Shown in pieces: positions 7,583-60,232 of a DNA stretch of 64,000 bases. Within the stretch, counting starts at the first letter, position 1. Every line of letters begins with the position of its first letter. The notes below the pieces were generated by a model that was not told the DNA's origin, searched no databases, and worked only from the letters and a program-made list of their open reading frames with translations. This stretch comes from Simkaniaceae bacterium (lineage in GTDB: Bacteria > Chlamydiota > Chlamydiia > Chlamydiales > Simkaniaceae): the NCBI GenBank assembly GCA_028281675.1, contig JANQJL010000057.1, positions 2,077 through 66,076 on the forward strand. Reading direction: 5' to 3'. A program made the position numbers and the translations under genes.

Positions 7583-7843
7583 AAAGGGTGTAAATAAAAC
7601 CTATGAAATAAACCTCGACCAGCTTTACGGAGCTGCTCTTCGTTTTGTTTCAAGAAATCTTACTCACTTATGCAGCGCTAAAGGGAAAAATAAGTGGCAC
7701 TTCTGGTTAAAAATGTTAGGGTGAAAGAAAGGGCGAGGGAATTTAGATGCAAGTCCCCCTTGCGGGTTGTCGAAGCAGAATGAGCGGAGTAGATGGCTGC
7801 CCGCATCCTCTGCTGCGCCCTAACACTTTTGTTTACACCCTTT
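7583..7843 (+). repeat. structured intergenic repeat, copy A (composite; inner unit about 7708..7830)
   Basis: 12-bp perfect terminal inverted repeat: AAAGGGTGTAAA at 7583-7594 and TTTACACCCTTT at 7832-7843. The inner arms TGTTAGGGTG (7714-7723) and CGCCCTAACA (7816-7825) enclose the core CCCCCTTGCGGGTTGTCGAAGCAG, which is shared with copies B and C. Confidence 0.65.
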
Positions 7844-15530: not shown

Positions 15531-15568
15531 ACCCCCTCCTTTTTTTTAAAGGGGTGTTTTATTTTTTA
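15531..15568 (+). terminator. orphan terminator-like hairpin
   Basis: CACCCC (15531-36) ... GGGGTG (15552-57) followed by TTTTATTTTTT. No plus-strand gene ends just upstream, so its role is unclear. Confidence 0.3.
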
Positions 15569-15829
15569 ATTTTGATTTCATTTAAACAGCTTAATTTTTA
15601 AATCTTTAGCGGGTTAGTTTTTGTTAAACTTTCTTCTACCCCAGTGCCACTTATTTCGCTCTTTTCATACATTTGGTCATGCATCACAAATATTTTATCC
15701 TAAAGGATGTGTGAATTTGTGCCATGGAACCAACTTTGCAAAAATACTCAAAAAATCGACGAATCTGGACTTTTGCAAGTGGCTCTAAATTCTAAATTTG
15801 TTACAACAGATAAAAAGTAAGGATTGAGA

Positions 15830-24515: not shown

Positions 24516-24662
24516 ACCTAACCTCCACTAAAGATAATTTTTTATTTCACACTTTTTGGTATTTTGAACCCTTGTCATCTAGACAATGTGATCAAAATAA
24601 AAAGAAAAAATCTCCCCAAAAACTGAAGGAATTCAATCAATCCTTTAATGCAGGATAGGTTC

Positions 24663-25601
24663 ATGAAGATCATTTACTTTGGAACCCCCCCCTTTGCAGC
24701 TGAAGTTCTAAAAAGCTTAATCGGAAATGGGGTCGAAGTCCTTGCCATTGTCACCAAGCCTGACAGACCAAAAGGGCGGAGTGGCAAACCTGCCTTTTCT
24801 GCTGTCAAAGAATTTGCTACAAAAAACTGCCCAGATATTCCCCTTTATCAACCTGACAAAGCATCGACTCTAGCCTTTGAGGAGGAGCTCCGTCGCTATG
24901 GGGCCGACCTTTTTGTCGTTGTTGCTTATGGAGAGATCATGAAACAACGCCTCCTTGATCTTCCAAAAGAAGGATCTATCAACCTTCATGCCTCCCTCCT
25001 TCCCAAATATCGTGGGGCCGCCCCCATTCAATTTGCCCTTTTTGATGGAGCAAAAGAAACAGGGGTTACCATTATCAGAATGGTTTTAAAAATGGATGCG
25101 GGAGATATGCTCGCTCAAGAAAAGATTTCCATTCCGAAGGAGATGAACTGCGCAGAGCTCGAAGAAAAGCTATGCATCCTTGGAGGTAAAACGCTTCTTC
25201 GTGTCATTCGAAAATTTTCTCACCATGACTCCCAGAAAAAGCCTCAAGATCCGAAAGAGGCAACCTATGTTCAAAAAATTGATTCCTCCATGGCTGAAAT
25301 TGACTGGAACCAAGATGCCGAAGATATTCATAACCAAATCCGAGCCTTTAGCCCTCGTCCCGGTGCTTGGACGAAAGTGGAAGTAGGTGGCCATTTAAAA
25401 AGGTTAAAAATTTTTAAAAGTGCAGTCGTTCAAGAAAATGGCACAGCCGGATCGACCCTTTCCTTTTCCAAAAGTAATTGGATTATTGGCTGCAGAAATG
25501 GGGGACTTTCCCTTTTAAAGGTTCAGCTTGAGGGAAAGAAAAGACTTCCTATCGATGAGTTTGTATTGGCTTTTTCTAGCCCACCCAAATTAAAATATTA
25601 A
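24663..25601 (+). CDS. fmt: methionyl-tRNA formyltransferase
   Basis: MKIIYFGTPPFA and SINLHASLLPKYRGAAPIQ. An ATG at 24648 is also possible. Confidence 0.92.
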   Translation: MKIIYFGTPPFAAEVLKSLIGNGVEVLAIVTKPDRPKGRSGKPAFSAVKEFATKNCPDIPLYQPDKASTLAFEEELRRYGADLFVVVAYGEIMKQRLLDLPKEGSINLHASLLPKYRGAAPIQFALFDGAKETGVTIIRMVLKMDAGDMLAQEKISIPKEMNCAELEEKLCILGGKTLLRVIRKFSHHDSQKKPQDPKEATYVQKIDSSMAEIDWNQDAEDIHNQIRAFSPRPGAWTKVEVGGHLKRLKIFKSAVVQENGTAGSTLSFSKSNWIIGCRNGGLSLLKVQLEGKKRLPIDEFVLAFSSPPKLKY

Positions 25602-43170: not shown

Positions 43171-43338
43171 CTAGTGGTCAGTCCCAAAAGTCCTTTTATA
43201 ATTTGACCCATCTTTTCCAGCCCGGCTGCGCGCTCGATCTCGACAACCCACATAGGGGTTGCCGTCGATCTCCGCGCTTTGCCGCCCAGAAAAATCTGGG
43301 CGCAAATTACCGAAAGAACTTATGGGACTAACCACTAG
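43171..43338 (-). repeat. structured intergenic repeat, copy C (core in reverse orientation)
   Basis: 21-bp terminal inverted repeat with 2 mismatches (CTAGTGGTCAGTCCCAAAAGT / ACTTATGGGACTAACCACTAG). Contains CTCGACAACCCACATAGGGGTTGCC, the reverse complement of the core seen in copies A and B. Confidence 0.7.
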
Positions 43339-43437: not shown

Positions 43438-43521
43438 GCTCGGGTGGTGGAATTGGTAGACACAAGGGACTTAAAATCCCTTGGCCTCACGGCCGTGCGG
43501 GTTCGAGTCCCGCCTCGAGCA
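43438..43521 (+). tRNA. tRNA-Leu (anticodon UAA), class II with long variable arm
   Basis: I folded it by hand. Acceptor GCTCGGG/CTCGAGC, D-arm GTGG..AATTGGTAGA, anticodon stem AGGGA/TCCCT with loop CTTAAAA, variable arm GGCC-TCAC-GGCC, T-arm GCGGG-TTCGAGT-CCCGC, discriminator A. No encoded CCA. Confidence 0.93.
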
Positions 43522-46727: not shown

Positions 46728-46862
46728 ATAAATTGGCTTTTACGCACTAGACAGGAAAAAATAGGCTTAAAGCGGATGAAAGAAGCGTAAAAGCAGGCGA
46801 TTTAAGTTGTTGTCTTCTTCAGACTTGTGTTATGTAGTTTCATCTGGTTTAATGAATGGGTA

Positions 46863-46918
46863 GCGATTTAAAATCCCTTGGTCTTAGGGCCGTGCGGGTT
46901 CGAATCCCGCCTCGAGCA
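46863..46918 (+). repeat. degenerate duplicate of the 3' half of tRNA-Leu(UAA) (att-like direct repeat / tRNA pseudogene)
   Basis: GCGATTTAAAATCCCTTGGTCTTAGGGCCGTGCGGGTTCGAATCCCGCCTCGAGCA aligns with 43466-43521 of the intact tRNA with about 7 substitutions. There is no matching 5' acceptor or D-arm half, only a vestigial AATGGGTAG. Confidence 0.85.
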
Positions 46919-50098: not shown

Positions 50099-51190
50099 AT
50101 GAATGCTACCAAAATATGTCTTTTGATATTGGCTCTATGTTTTTCAACCCTTCAAGGAGCGGTTGTACAGAGCACTGAAAATCAGTTGGTAGAGGCTCCA
50201 GAAAAAACTAAGATCGGTAGCTTTGCCGGTGTGTCTTTTATTTACTGGACTCCCCGTGTTGATGCCTTAACTTATGCGCAGACGGGGCGGAATTCTTTGG
50301 AAACGGTTGCAGCCGAAAATCTCACCGATTTTCTCAATTTGCCTCAGGGTACGGATTTAGCAGTCAATTGGCAATGGGAACCTGGGTTTAAAGCAAACTT
50401 AGGGTGGGATTTTAGGAGTCAATGGCAGATTCAGCTAGAATATACGTGGCTTTACTCAAAAGCAAAAGGTTCGAAGTCAAGTATAGGAGGGATCTTTCCT
50501 AATGTTGATATTTTTCCGTTAGATATTGTTACGGCGTTAGGAGCAATAGATCGAGCAAAGGCAACATGGTCTCTTCACTATCAGCTTCTACATTTAGAGC
50601 TTGGCCGAGAGTATCGATATACCTCCGCGTTAAAATTTAGGACCTCCTTCGGAGCAACACTTACCGATCAGACTCAACATTACTCAACTTTATATGTGAT
50701 TCCCCCATTTAATTTTACTTTCGGACAGGGTTCTATTTCTTCATCACAGGCAGTTAATTTTAATTTTTCTGGTAAGCAAGAAGTTTTTGGAACTGGACTC
50801 CGTTTAGCTTTTGCCCCTACTTGGTATCTCACTAAGTGGTTTGGTTTCTACGGAAAGATTGGGATGTCCTACTTATGGATGTACTATGATGTTAAACGTA
50901 AGGACTCAGGGGGGACAGAGTTTCCAATTAGTGGGCAACTAACTGGGGTGAAGATAAAGCTTACCAATATTGAAACAAAAGTTCGTACAATGAAGCTTTT
51001 TTTCGATGCTAATCTGGGCTTCTTTTTTGAAACCCCTACCTTTTGCACCAACTTTCGGTTTAGCTGGTTTCTCGGATGGGAAGCACATATTTGGATCAAT
51101 CAGACCTATCAAATTAATTTAGGAAGAGAACTTTCTCGCTATGATCTTACTATGCAGGGTCTTACTACAAAACTGCAGCTCGACTTCTAG
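50099..51190 (+). CDS. outer-membrane beta-barrel protein (porin/MOMP-like, family not assignable)
   Basis: Signal peptide MNATKICLLILALCFSTLQGAV. Alternating-hydrophobic strand pattern throughout. Aromatic girdle residues. C-terminal ...TKLQLDF ends in Phe. Start set to ATG 50099. Confidence 0.7.
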   Translation: MNATKICLLILALCFSTLQGAVVQSTENQLVEAPEKTKIGSFAGVSFIYWTPRVDALTYAQTGRNSLETVAAENLTDFLNLPQGTDLAVNWQWEPGFKANLGWDFRSQWQIQLEYTWLYSKAKGSKSSIGGIFPNVDIFPLDIVTALGAIDRAKATWSLHYQLLHLELGREYRYTSALKFRTSFGATLTDQTQHYSTLYVIPPFNFTFGQGSISSSQAVNFNFSGKQEVFGTGLRLAFAPTWYLTKWFGFYGKIGMSYLWMYYDVKRKDSGGTEFPISGQLTGVKIKLTNIETKVRTMKLFFDANLGFFFETPTFCTNFRFSWFLGWEAHIWINQTYQINLGRELSRYDLTMQGLTTKLQLDF

Positions 51191-51245
51191 TGGTCAGTCT
51201 ACAAAGTCCCTTAGCACAACAACTGATCTTTCCAATTGAGGCAGG
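51188..51245 (+). repeat. partial (left-end) copy of repeat C type
   Basis: CTAGTGGTCAGTCTACAAAGTCCC...ATCTTTCCA parallels CTAGTGGTCAGTCCCAAAAGTCC...ATCTTTTCCA of copy C. No core and no right-end repeat found. Its TAG is the OMP stop codon. Confidence 0.4.
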
Positions 51246-51280
51246 ATTTTTAATCTCACGAATCACCAGCGGTTAGTGTC

Positions 51281-51311
51281 GATTTTCAAACCCAGTTTCA
51301 CTTTGAAAATC
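51281..51311. other. perfect 10-bp-stem hairpin between convergent genes
   Basis: GATTTTCAAA-CCCAGTTTCAC-TTTGAAAATC. No U tract on either strand. Confidence 0.5.
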
Positions 51312-54288: not shown

Positions 54289-55071
54289 ATGAAACAACCA
54301 TTTATATGTATTAAGAAGGTTTCGAAAACCTATTTTGAAAAGCGCCGAGTTCTTAAAGAGGCGCTGAAAGGAGTCTCCCTTGATATCCATCAAGGTGAGG
54401 TTCTAGGTTTGCTCGGCGTGAACGGAGCAGGAAAGACAACTTTAGTATCTATTCTGGCAACCCTCCATCCGCCAACAGCAGGGGAAGTTTATTGGAACGG
54501 AGAGTCGATTTATAAGGCCCTTCTCCCTTATCGCAGAGTTGTAGGGTATTGCCCACAACATCCCAATATTGAAAAGGAGCTTTCCCTAGGGGAAAATTTG
54601 ATTTTTTCGGGGCGTTGCTATGGACTCAGCAAAAAAGAAGCCGAAGAGCGGCAGAATGAGATTGCTAAAGAGTTCAAGTTGGAAGAATATTTAGAAGCAA
54701 ACGTTGACCAGGTTTCTGGAGGGTATAGGCAGCGCTTTCTTATTGCACGCGCGCTCATGCACCGCCCAGAATTAGTGATCCTTGATGAGCCAACCGTGGG
54801 ACTTGACTCCCACATTCGTCGAGAACTTTGGGGAGCTATTTCAAAGCTGCGCGAGCAAAAAATCACTGTAATCTTAACCACTCATTATTTAGATGAAGCG
54901 GAACATCTCTCTGATCGAATCTGCCTTATTCATGAGGGAACTATTCGAACAGTTGATACTCCTGAGAACCTGAAGAAGCAACATCAGAAGAACAATTTAG
55001 AAGAGGTTTTCCTCAAGTTCGTTGATGACCCAGATGCTGAAATTTTTAATTCTGGAGTGGAAAATGAATAG
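54289..55071 (+). CDS. ABC transporter ATP-binding protein (ABC-2 exporter type)
   Basis: Walker A GVNGAGKTT, signature VSGGYRQR, Walker B LVILDEPTVGLD. Confidence 0.9.
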   Translation: MKQPFICIKKVSKTYFEKRRVLKEALKGVSLDIHQGEVLGLLGVNGAGKTTLVSILATLHPPTAGEVYWNGESIYKALLPYRRVVGYCPQHPNIEKELSLGENLIFSGRCYGLSKKEAEERQNEIAKEFKLEEYLEANVDQVSGGYRQRFLIARALMHRPELVILDEPTVGLDSHIRRELWGAISKLREQKITVILTTHYLDEAEHLSDRICLIHEGTIRTVDTPENLKKQHQKNNLEEVFLKFVDDPDAEIFNSGVENE

Positions 55072-55840
55072 TCTTTCCGTTTTTTGTCATTTAATAAGAC
55101 GTGATCTCATTGCTTTTAAACGGGTATTTTTGACAAAATTTTTTGATACCTTTTTACTTTTTTTTACCAACGTGATGGCCTTTGGATACTTATTGCAACA
55201 GGAAGGGGCCCATGCAGGATATGCCGCCTTTTTTGTCGTTGGGGCAATTGCGAGTTTTGGCTTTGTTGAAATTGTTGGTAAGGTAGGGATTCAGCTCGCT
55301 GATATGGGTGGGGATCAGACAATTTTTCATACCCTTGCCATGCCGATTCGCTCTAATATGGTTTTCTATTATATGGGGACCTCTTGGGCAATTACATCGA
55401 TGCTCCTTTCGGTCCTATTTTTCCCCATTGGGAAACTCCTTGTTTTCACCGAGTGGGACATCACAATGATTTCTTGGTGGAGATTGGTGATTATGTTTGT
55501 CACTGCAAACCTATTCTTCGGTTTTTTTGCCCTTTGGCTCACCAGTGTGATCAAAAATATGACAGGCCTAAACAGTTTATGGTTTCGCTATATTGCTCCA
55601 ATGTGGATGTTTGGAGGGTATGTTTACTCCTGGCAATCTGCTTATACTCTCAATCATATGGTTGGTTATATCAGTTTGATTAACCCAATGATCTATGTGA
55701 TGGAAGGGATGCGAGCAGCAGCGCTTGGGCAAGCGGGTTATCTCCCTTATTGGGTTTCAGTGACGATGCTTTGGGTCTTTATCATCGCATGTACCAAACA
55801 TGCCACAGGTAGATTAAGAAAAAAGCTCGATTGTATTTAG
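55064..55840 (+). CDS. ABC-2 type transporter permease
   Basis: 6 TM segments. Start set to ATG 55064, overlapping the ATPase stop. The stop TAG lies inside repeat copy B. Confidence 0.8.
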   Translation: MNSLSVFCHLIRRDLIAFKRVFLTKFFDTFLLFFTNVMAFGYLLQQEGAHAGYAAFFVVGAIASFGFVEIVGKVGIQLADMGGDQTIFHTLAMPIRSNMVFYYMGTSWAITSMLLSVLFFPIGKLLVFTEWDITMISWWRLVIMFVTANLFFGFFALWLTSVIKNMTGLNSLWFRYIAPMWMFGGYVYSWQSAYTLNHMVGYISLINPMIYVMEGMRAAALGQAGYLPYWVSVTMLWVFIIACTKHATGRLRKKLDCI

Positions 55841-56000
55841 GGCGTGTCATCAATTAAAGGAAGTTGAAAGAGGGCTCTCTATGAGGAAGCTTCTAGGCGT
55901 CCGATGGAGGCAACCCCTTGTGGGTTGTCGAAGCAGGACAACGAAGAAATTTTCCATAGAGATTTCTAAGACAACGCAGCGTAATTGTTGACACGCCCTA
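55838..56000 (+). repeat. structured intergenic repeat, copy B
   Basis: 19-bp terminal inverted repeat with 1 mismatch (TAGGGCGTGTCATCAATTA / TAATTGTTGACACGCCCTA). Nested stems (CTCTAT..GGAA / TTCC..ATAGAG). Core GGCAACCCCTTGTGGGTTGTCGAAGCAGGACAAC. Confidence 0.75.
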
Positions 56001-56510
56001 GTCCTTAGGAATGAGAAAGCGAATCCCTTTGGAAGATCGTGTGTGGATCCATTTCACATCTGTCATTGTTTTCATTTGTTCTAAATAGTCACGGCGGTGG
56101 CGGAAGTAAGACCCAAGAAGCCATTTGACGATCGATTTAGAGGAGAAAAGACGGGAAAAGGTCTCGCGGTTCCCATTGCAAATCTCTTTTTTATCGATTA
56201 TTCTTCTAATGCTTCGGGAAATGACCCGCCACAAAAGGACATAAAGGGGAAGATCGAGCCAGATGATGGTGTCCGCTTTTGGCCAGATAAGGTGGCGGTA
56301 TTTCGATTGATTCCCGCAGATGATCCAACAGTCGGTACTCGTCGCATCCTCAATGAGAGAGGCAAATTCTTCTGAGGGGCGAAAGGTCCAGTTGGGGAGC
56401 CAATAAAAAGTGTCAAGATCAGCAACAGGGTAGCCGAGATTTTCACTCAAGTGGTTTCCTAGAGTGGTTTTCCCCGATCCGCAGCTTCCAATGATCACAA
56501 TTCGTTTCAT
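55998..56510 (-). CDS. P-loop NTPase (adenylate-kinase-like / 'topology modulation' family)
   Basis: MKRIVIIGSCGSGKTTLG Walker A. 170 aa. The stop codon lies inside repeat copy B. Confidence 0.7.
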   Translation of the reverse strand: MKRIVIIGSCGSGKTTLGNHLSENLGYPVADLDTFYWLPNWTFRPSEEFASLIEDATSTDCWIICGNQSKYRHLIWPKADTIIWLDLPLYVLLWRVISRSIRRIIDKKEICNGNRETFSRLFSSKSIVKWLLGSYFRHRRDYLEQMKTMTDVKWIHTRSSKGIRFLIPKD

Positions 56511-57254: not shown

Positions 57255-57394
57255 TGCCTATACCTCAACTTTTCCTATAGTAAAAAAGAGCTTCAAACAC
57301 AACAATTTTTCTTCTCAGTAAATAAGTTTTTCCTTAAACTTTTCTACTCAAAAACTGAAGAAATTAAATAAACTCTTTAACACAGGATAGGTTC

Positions 57395-58318
57395 ATGGTG
57401 TATTCTATTATTGACCTTCATTGCGATCTTTTAGCCTACCTTAATGAGGATAGAGAAAAGAATGATCCAATGAATGACGCCTCAAGATGTTCTCTTCCCC
57501 TTTTAGAAAAAGGGGGAGTGGCTATCCAGGTACTAGCTGTTTTTTCGCAGCTTGGAGCGGGTTCTTTTAAACAAGCTGAAGGGCAAATCGCCTGCTTTAA
57601 AGAGATGCTAAAAAATTTCTCCAACGCAAAAACTGATTTTATCCTTGCTATCGAAAGCGCTTGCAGTCTTCTTGAAGAAGAGGAGCCGCTAGATCTTCTT
57701 TTTGACCGCTTTGACAGAGAAAAATGGCTCTATATCAGCCTGACTTGGAAAGAAGAAAACCGTTTCGGTGGAGGCGATCAGACAAAGGTAGGGCTAAAGC
57801 GTGATGGAGAAATTCTCTTGGAATATATGGATGGGAAAGACGTAGCCATTGACCTGAGTCACACCTCCGATCCCTTAGCAGAGGGGATTCTCAACCATAT
57901 CGATAAAAAGGGGCTTACGGTTACCCCGATTGCCAGCCACTCTAACTTTCGAGCGGTAAAAGCTCACCCCCGTAACCTTCCCGATTATTTAGCAAAAGAA
58001 ATTATTGCTCGTGGAGGGGTCATTGGGATCAATTTTGTTCGCCACTTTGTAGGGAACAACCCAGAAGACTTCCTCAGTCACATACGTCATGGTCTCTTTC
58101 TTGGAGGGGAAGAAACCCTTGCTATTGGCGCCGATTTCTTTGGGGGCATTCCTCTCCCATCCATTCAACACCTCAAGCCTTTCTATCAAGAGTCATTTTC
58201 AAATAGCAGCGCTTACCCCGACTTTATTAGTCTTCTAGAAAGGGAGCTTTCGGAAGACCAAATCAAAAAGATTACAAGTCTTAATGCGAACCGCCTGATG
58301 GTCCAAAGTGTTTCTTAA
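57395..58318 (+). CDS. membrane dipeptidase family protein (peptidase M19-like)
   Basis: IDLHCDLL, DLSHTSD and IASHSNFRAV match M19 metal-ligand regions. Confidence 0.7.
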   Translation: MVYSIIDLHCDLLAYLNEDREKNDPMNDASRCSLPLLEKGGVAIQVLAVFSQLGAGSFKQAEGQIACFKEMLKNFSNAKTDFILAIESACSLLEEEEPLDLLFDRFDREKWLYISLTWKEENRFGGGDQTKVGLKRDGEILLEYMDGKDVAIDLSHTSDPLAEGILNHIDKKGLTVTPIASHSNFRAVKAHPRNLPDYLAKEIIARGGVIGINFVRHFVGNNPEDFLSHIRHGLFLGGEETLAIGADFFGGIPLPSIQHLKPFYQESFSNSSAYPDFISLLERELSEDQIKKITSLNANRLMVQSVS

Positions 58319-60068: not shown

Positions 60069-60232
60069 GGTTTGAGGGTTGTGGGATTTATTCCTTTCTG
60101 TTCACCTATCTTCTGGGATCCTTTTGAATGTTGCTCCTAGGAAAGGGCTAGGCCTTTCCCGTTGTCACAACATTCAAAATTATCCTCAGAATTTAGGCCA
60201 CCAGAAAGGAAACATCCCACAACCCCCAAACC
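60069..60232. repeat. 164-nt long imperfect hairpin (MITE-like or structured RNA)
   Basis: The outer arm GGTTTGAGGGTTGTGGGAT..CCTTTCTG pairs with CAGAAAGG..ATCCCACAACCCCCAAACC. The middle stem is TGAATGTTG/CAACATTCA. The apical stem is GGAAAGG/CCTTTCC. Confidence 0.65.

Follow-up and report, generated by a model that had tools for sequence, protein, structure and literature searches.

The window analysed here is a stretch of 64,000 nucleotides (contig C100, positions 2077-66076) from a Simkaniaceae bacterium, whose assembly comprises 1.88 Mb in 108 contigs, with a GC content of 41.8% and a completeness of 94%. It contains two intact copies (B and C) of a family of palindromic repeats, together with decayed copies. 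The repeats are very probably miniature transposable elements with inverted repeats (MITEs), that is, non-autonomous DNA transposons, of an environmental chlamydia. The best overall explanation, with a probability of roughly 75%, is a MITE superfamily of Simkaniaceae-like and other environmental chlamydiae with a portable shared core.

The elements follow a common plan. Each is an imperfect palindrome of about 161-166 bp. Its two terminal inverted repeats measure about 16-22 nt, and its paired arms enclose a central module of 55-75 nt. The aligned central 55-75 nt are homologous in all the subfamily types of this genome, and a covariance model (R1) was built from this alignment. The statistics on the core given below are for 81 copies (76 of them distinct) aligned to R1.

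The first-pass annotation of the window described three full copies with a common core, and regarded them as a selected structure rather than a MITE. Copies B and C are intact, but copy A is decayed, with a slip deletion in its core and an interruption by another repeat (family F, see below). The choice between structure and MITE was also too sharp. The TA duplication, an empty site, the insertion sequence (IS) ends and the size variants all indicate MITEs, but the signal of the core survives in the 81 copies. The features of the two intact copies are as follows, with the TA duplications included in the boundaries of both elements.

55838-56000, plus strand: copy B, intact probable MITE of 163 bp, clade I, subfamily 1b, TA + GGGCGTGTCATCAATTA ... 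TAATTGTTGACACGCCC + TA
55838-55839: left TA duplicate of copy B; the stop codon TAG of the upstream gene (55022-55840) consists of this TA and the first G of the element
55885-55957, plus strand: central module of copy B, matching R1 with 72.4 bits
55909-55929, plus strand: core hairpin of copy B, GGCAACCC / CTTGT / GGGTTGTC, with the conserved unpaired flanks CCGATGGA and GAAGCAGGACAACG
55999-56000: right TA duplicate of copy B; the stop codon TAG of the convergent gene (55998-56510) consists of this TA and the last base of the element, read on the minus strand
43172-43337, minus strand: copy C, intact probable MITE of 166 bp, clade II, subfamily 2, TA + GTGGTTAGTCCCA ... TGGGACTGACCAC + TA (minus-strand reading)
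43214-43289, minus strand: central module of copy C, matching R1 with 86.4 bits; hairpin GGCAACCCC..GGGTTGTC between GGAGATCGAC and GAGATCGAGCG

Insertion at TA and size variants

The core of copies B and C is located at the centre of an imperfect palindrome that spans the full length of the element. The inverted repeats of copy B are 19 nt long with one mismatch, and those of copy C are about 19 nt long with two mismatches (TA-GTGGTTAGTCCC...GGGACTGACCAC-TA in the sense reading). The predicted folding energy of copy B is -72.3 kcal/mol as RNA (z = -8.3) and -31.5 kcal/mol as DNA (z = -5.3), and that of copy C is about -100 kcal/mol. The exact pattern CAACCC-N4-7-GGGTTGTCGA has two occurrences in the window, at 43240-43261 (minus strand) and 55911-55931 (plus strand), and none in 100 shuffles. 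Both copies are positioned between open reading frames (ORFs), and only the terminal TA+G of the element overlaps stop codons.

The elements insert at TA and duplicate it. Inverted ends of 12 nt, with at most two mismatches and flanked by TA, are present in 52 of the 81 copies, and most of these elements are 161-166 bp in length. The site of copy B is empty in four sister species (G011, G001, G013 and G009), where the upstream ortholog ends with ...GATTG(C/T)AT(T/C)TAA and the convergent gene is located within 0-40 bp. The sequence in these relatives is ...ATT-TA-A..., compared to ATT-TA-(159 bp)-TA-G in this genome. Copy B is a lineage-specific insertion, and the presence of the element at this site varies between species; the first-pass annotation had suggested looking for insertion polymorphism between strains. 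For the flanking gene of copy C, no ortholog was found in the genus.

Size variants are observed in genome G008, where 35 matches to the 19-nt end of copy B (14 of them perfect) bound elements of 51, 61, 87, 128 and 164 bp. Solo hairpins of 20-40 nt, of the RAYT-mobilised REP/BIME type, were considered and rejected, as the two-armed matches, genome-wide, are all located inside elements of 150-180 bp. The solitary matches to GGGTTGTCGA in the genome do not have the 5′ arm.

In elements that start with TA-G, a TAG stop is regenerated at both ends. The insertion of copy B took place at the one TA common to two overlapping convergent stops (TTAG, which reads TAG on the plus and TAA on the minus strand), and it left each of the convergent genes with its own TAG (55838-55840 and 55998-56000). 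Among about 25 TA-G elements, one end or more coincides with the stop codon of an ORF of 100 or more amino acids in 8, and both ends do so in 4, compared to an expectation of 5.7% for random hits on tolerated TA (binomial p ~5e-5). The other elements with stop-codon ends are L121, L105, L070, L095, L108, L093 and L069.

Subfamilies, end classes and candidate transposases

The elements in this genome are 150-180 bp in length and sort into subfamilies. Subfamily 1a includes the copies on contigs C10, C12 and C16, copy A, and a truncated copy on C67, while subfamily 1b includes copy B and the copies on C6 and C108. Copy C belongs to subfamily 2, together with the copies on C106, C58 and C33 (mutual identity 92-96%). 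There are two copies of subfamily 2b and at least nine of subfamily 3, four of them at contig ends. Overall, the genome has at least eight copies of clade I and at least five of type 2, in addition to types 2b and 3. The arms of copies A, B and C, described earlier as copy-specific, are indeed different from each other, but they are specific to the subfamily and recur in this and related genomes.

Cores and ends have been reshuffled among the elements, as copy L094 has a clade II core between 1b-like ends. In a separate set of elements (C25:3466-3603, C20:4471-4589 and C106:17672-17795), arms similar to those of copy C (GCAATTTGCGCCTAGATTTTTGG...) surround a quite different central hairpin (CTCGAAAAATCGAGAACATTGTCTATGGACAAGG...), indicating that cores as well as ends are exchanged between families.

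The end of clade I, the class of copy B (TAGnnnGTGTCrTCA), is also the end of an 852-bp insertion sequence in sister genomes. Pairs of TAGATAGTGTCGTCA ends are found exactly 852 bp apart at least 11 times in G007 (CP073762.1), and similar pairs are present in G012 and G013. The 852-bp elements encode DUF4096 and DDE_Tnp_1 in two overlapping ORFs, and their flanks are C-TA...TA-R. Their size, the two ORFs and the 2-bp TA flanks place them in the IS427 group of the IS5 family, whose members are 832-865 bp in length, with 2-bp direct repeats and a programmed frameshift (PMC3281130). As in IS1248 and ISPaes1 of Paracoccus, which belong to this group (PMC3281130), the chlamydial IS has inverted repeats of about 16-18 bp and a 2-bp duplication. 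Its ends are carried by clade I elements, including relatives of copy B. A core-bearing MITE of 163 bp in the same genome (G007:592085-592247) is identical to the 852-bp IS at 16 of 16 nt at both ends and is unrelated to it inside. However, only the terminal 16-22 nt are in common, and the arms and core of the MITEs have no relationship to the IS interior. The MITEs are therefore not simple deletion derivatives of the IS.

A second type of end is related to an IS630 element of G007, which is 1156 bp in length, encodes a helix-turn-helix and DDE_3, and ends with TA/(A)TACCATTT. The type 3 elements in this genome have ends of the form TA-(A)TACCATTTC..., and the right end of the 1156-bp IS630 matches the type 3 end (TA-ATACCATTTCGGAAAAATAAAG) at 18 of 24 positions, including the first ten. 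Ends that match an IS630-family IS are restricted to the type 3 and type 2b subfamilies. Judged from the terminal sequences, clade I, with copy B, is IS427-type and type 3 is IS630-type.

Four contigs end within identical type 3 elements (C34:26408-26483, C44:1-76, C66:3404-3494 and C76:1825-1915). As the assembly is interrupted by these repeats, there are probably more copies than the count given here.

Type 3 is related to the chlamydial IS630 in the same way as RUP is related to IS630-Spn1 in Streptococcus pneumoniae (PMC2229807). RUP is also short and non-coding, targets TA, has IS630-like ends, and is thought to be moved in trans. In comparison, RUP is 107 bp in length with no reported internal motif, whereas the chlamydial elements are about 163 bp with a conserved core, and copies B and C do not have IS630-type ends. 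IS630 was rejected as the driver of copies B and C, as the sampled IS630 ends (ATACCATTT, TAGCTAAA, CTCAAGGC and CCAATCCT) are unlike theirs and there is no DDE_3 in the genome.

Transposases from IS427-type and IS630-type insertion sequences would move the elements in trans, and the different arms in the window would then represent end classes adapted to different transposases. As the end classes match different transposases, the covarying outer arms noted in the first-pass annotation are largely explained without selection on RNA. The copies in this assembly may be orphans, or their drivers may be unassembled.

Several observations weigh against the overall explanation at this point. The end of copy B itself agrees with the IS427-type end at only 13 of 19 positions. 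An IS with C-type ends was not found in the genus, where only solo ends and mini-elements with such ends are present. In this assembly there is no DDE_3 and no tblastn match to either transposase, although it is 94% complete in 108 contigs, several of which end inside type 3 copies, so that either could have been missed. Insertion sequences with matching ends, a possible sign of MITE origin, have been located for the clade I class (IS427 group) and for type 3 (IS630), in both cases in sister genomes, but none for copy C and none in this assembly. IS ancestry is clear for these ends, which is a part of what the first-pass annotation had named as refuting its reading.

Insertion sequences are expanded in the sister species G007, G012, G005 and G013, and neither the IS427 group nor IS630 is seen in this assembly. 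Matches to IS630-family genes in the genus number 66 in G012, 20 in G005, 13 in G013 and 12 in G007. No multi-copy IS was found in this assembly by self-megablast, which detected only paralogous surface-protein genes.

The shared core and how it may be read

Among the aligned copies, 93.1% of the cells are paired, compared to 67.3% in shuffles and 36-56% with the partner slid, and the covariation score is 0.689, compared to 0.214 in shuffles. The core hairpin, of 7-8 bp, is 96.4% paired, and both sides change in five of seven pairs. The conserved core with compensated stem changes, as proposed earlier from three copies, holds up on the larger set. The variants of the stem include GGCAACCC/GGGTTGTC, AAGAGCCC/GGGCTCTT, GGAAGCCC/GGGCTTTC, GTGAGCCC/GGGCTCGC and CTAACCAC/GTGGTTAG, and the loops are free to vary. 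The unpaired flanks are nearly invariant, with CCGATGSA and GAAGSAGGRCAACG in clade I and GGAGATCGAY and GAGATCGARAG in clade II. The GATC tetramers in the clade II flanks pair and covary. A purine-rich 6x6 internal loop is predicted for the fold.

Other interpretations of the core and its flanks were rejected. The GAGATCGA "direct repeats" around the clade II hairpin are not a duplication produced by insertion of the hairpin, as they covary as a helix: the self-complementary GATC of the two copies pairs, and GATC/GATC becomes AATC/GATT or GATT/AATC. Readings of the clade I internal loop as a K-turn or a sarcin-ricin motif did not fit by inspection. The core as a remnant of an IS interior, or as an antisense of a transposase gene, was discarded, as no R1 or blastn-short match was found in 16 IS loci.

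The wobble pairs are one-sided, with 104 G·U/U·G compared to 16 A·C/C·A. The sense strand of the module is more stable than its complement by 10.2 kcal/mol in 74 of 80 elements; for copy B as RNA, the complement has a folding energy of -59.5 kcal/mol, compared to the -72.3 kcal/mol of the sense strand. For the arms, which lie outside R1 and have no part in setting the orientation, the strand bias is the same in 61 of 75 elements and, when these are grouped into arm clusters, in 18 of 25 (Wilcoxon p = 0.0025). A preference for the replication strand (C-rich) is weak (43 versus 33, sign test p = 0.25).

The first-pass annotation had outlined a scan with a covariance model. With R1, further copies were found in this genome, and 11 of 16 sister species have 2-41 copies each. 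Beyond the sister species, R1 detects the module in other genera of the family (1 of 8) and in other families (2 of 16 sampled). G083 and G089, complete genomes of the sister genus, carry 3 to at least 15 copies. When the phylum was sampled evenly (301 Chlamydiota genomes), 30 genomes had the module, representing 21 of 165 genera and 10 families, all of one order. Moreover, a scan with a 24-position clade I motif, over genomes of 185,579 species, gave matches only in Simkania, Simkaniaceae, and metagenome-assembled genomes (MAGs) of Chlamydiia. The patchy distribution across relatives has the appearance of mobile DNA.

The core is better conserved than the ends. In most MITEs, the ends are the conserved part.

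The compensated turnover of the stem, the invariant asymmetric flanks and the wobble bias for one strand are read together as selection on a single-stranded fold. We tentatively propose, at somewhat less than even odds, that the core module is selected as the fold of one specific strand, as RNA or as single-stranded DNA. The core would be a portable module that persisted through changes of ends, and it would help the element to persist rather than catalyse its movement, as coreless 61-bp derivatives have also spread. A more extended version is possible but doubtful. In this version selection would act on the module as an autonomous unit, in the form of a strand-specific structured RNA or single-stranded DNA whose hairpin covaries and whose purine-rich internal-loop strands are invariant. 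MITEs of at least two unrelated transposase families (IS427-type and IS630-type), spread over ten chlamydial families, would have carried, exchanged or recaptured the module, and it would be kept for a benefit to the element or the host that is unrelated to transposition chemistry.

Other observations count against a selected core. The relatedness of the copies means that their independence is overestimated in the pair counts and cluster tests; in addition, the alignment was fitted to the model, and a common ancestry of arm clusters is possible. Four 61-bp copies in G008 lack the core and are found at different loci with one identical internal junction, which indicates that the coreless form itself spread and that the core is dispensable for movement. 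In Rfam, nothing was found on copies B and C at gathering or permissive thresholds, with no hit of E < 6; in the scan of the window, only a tRNA reaches the gathering score. In addition, terminator and promoter readings were rejected, as there is no U-tract after the hairpin and no sigma-70-like promoter site. The orientation of the elements relative to genes is not biased, with 16 same and 25 opposite in tandem settings, and 16 convergent and 14 divergent placements.

Some of these observations would also be expected if the elements were plain selfish MITEs with a functionless core. One ancestral palindromic element would have spread by horizontal transfer, with fold-back copying keeping the pairing and the G·U bias inherited from a few master copies. 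The patchy presence (0 copies in 5 of the 16 sister species), the movement of coreless forms, the absence of an orientation bias and the decay of many copies (copy A, the copy on C108 and 51187-51300 among them) are all consistent with this possibility. So are the near-identical cores in different families (G083, G261 and G298), which score about 68 bits and are about 90% identical to those of this genome, with different arms. However, fold-back renewal predicts symmetry of the whole element, while the asymmetric flanks (CCGATGSA versus GAAGSAGGRCAACG) are invariant as the stem turns over. Conservation of the core above the ends is the reverse of the usual MITE pattern, and of 25 unrelated arm clusters, 18 repeat the strand bias. 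We consider this explanation unlikely, though it deserves serious weight.

Alternatively, the core could act on the DNA level in transposition, as a site of bending or for a host factor, or as a cruciform that joins the ends of a stiff 160-bp element, and so boost the frequency without being essential. Many end classes and two transposase families are associated with the same element length of 161-166 bp, elements with ends from different IS families retain the core, and long forms are more numerous than short ones in G008 (12 core matches versus about 6 short forms). There is also a precedent in the IHF site of the Correia elements (CREE/NEMIS) of Neisseria (PMC2229807). Like the chlamydial elements, these have a TA duplication, the potential to form a hairpin over the full length, and long and short forms that differ by a central segment, with the functional motif located at the centre of the long form (PMC2229807). 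On the other hand, a duplex protein site should keep its sequence rather than covary, and a cruciform needs pairing in both strands while the wobble favours one (104 versus 16). Short forms do spread, moreover. The chlamydial centre is a covarying hairpin with a one-strand wobble bias rather than a duplex protein site, and it is combined with ends from two transposase families; no sequence relationship to the Correia elements is known. A DNA-level role for the core is improbable, but it deserves some weight.

The strand bias and the very stable folds could instead reflect use of the element by the host as a cis-acting RNA, such as a 3′-end stabiliser, an RNase III target, a terminator or a small RNA, with the copies kept for this purpose. 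Many copies adjoin the 3′ ends of genes, and such effects have been described for Correia and ERIC elements (PMC2229807). However, the sense strand shows no preference for the direction of the upstream gene, divergent placement is about as common as convergent placement, and the presence of the element at the site of copy B varies among sister species. The lack of a U-tract, of a promoter-like site and of an Rfam match is also unfavourable. We regard this use by the host as very improbable.

ERIC of enterobacteria and RPE of Rickettsia (PMC2229807) resemble the chlamydial elements as palindromic repeats of 100-150 bp with long stem-loops in intracellular or enteric bacteria. RPEs, however, are often in frame within genes and their mobility mechanism is unknown, whereas the chlamydial elements are intergenic or on stop codons and, compared to both RPE and ERIC, have identified IS-type ends.

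Decayed copies, other repeats and significance

The decayed copies in the window, and the repeat that interrupts copy A, are as follows.

7586-7599, plus strand: detached left terminus of copy A, GGGTGTAAATAAAA
7603-7707, plus strand: piece of family F, an unrelated palindromic repeat nested in the left arm of copy A, with the end TACCCGTGAATGCCACC
7708-7840, plus strand: main body of copy A, a decayed subfamily 1a element with the right end GTTTACACCC
51187-51300, minus strand: decayed clade II element, in which a degenerate, reverse-oriented core comes after a C-type left end (CTAGTGGTCAGTC)

The core of copy A is broken. It does not have the 2-nt bulge assigned to it at first; slippage between two GATGCA(A/G)G repeats has deleted about 16 nt, and with them the 5′ arm of the hairpin, and the core model gives a score of only 16 bits (E ~0.9). 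In addition, the left terminus is parted from the body by about 105 bp of the family F repeat. The segment at 51188-51245 was previously taken for a left-end fragment. Its C-type end was correctly recognized, but it is part of the decayed whole element at 51187-51300. The region at 15546-15660 had been listed as a possible relative of copy A; its segment at 15630-15660 resembles an end of family F and not the core family.

Family F is a palindromic repeat of about 190 bp, with the ends TACCCGTGAATGCCACCTATTTTT and at least 12 copies genome-wide. Its sites include 7603-7707 and ~15630-15660 in the window, and C106:20881-20983, C22:8654-8743, C107:639-724 and C96:3-88 elsewhere in this genome, among others. 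The junction between F and 1a in copy A is found again at C16, which points to a TA hot spot or to the spread of a chimeric element.

A fourth full-length palindromic element, which was not in the first-pass list, is located at 60069-60232 of the window. It is 164 bp in length, with a folding energy of -88 kcal/mol (z = -9.6). It has other ends (GGTTTGAGGGTTGTGGGA) and another core (GGAAAGGGCTAGGCCTTTCC), and does not match R1. A 55-nt direct repeat with 84% identity (TCTCCCCAAAAACTGAAGGAATTCAATCAATCCTTTAATGCAGGATAGGTTCATG) is present at 24611-24665 and 57343-57397, ending at ATG in both cases, and may be a common 5′ leader or promoter region of two genes. Adjoining copy C, the 3′ half of a tRNA-Leu is repeated with 89% identity 3.4 kb downstream (43465-43521 and 46862-46918).

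MITEs are well known in bacteria, and they are ordinary selfish DNA. No description of MITEs in Chlamydiae was found in the literature searched. The new point is that one conserved core is common to elements with the ends of two transposase families. The conservation is inverted: the ends differ by subfamily and match two transposase families, and the interior is conserved between families of the order and bears the marks of a selected single-strand fold. In practical terms, the elements break MAG assemblies, in which contigs end inside them, and they rewrite the 3′ ends of genes by landing on stop-codon TAs and regenerating TAG. Should the module prove functional, it would represent structured cargo that rides on selfish DNA in obligate intracellular bacteria, and it would offer a handle on the birth of new MITE families by end swapping.

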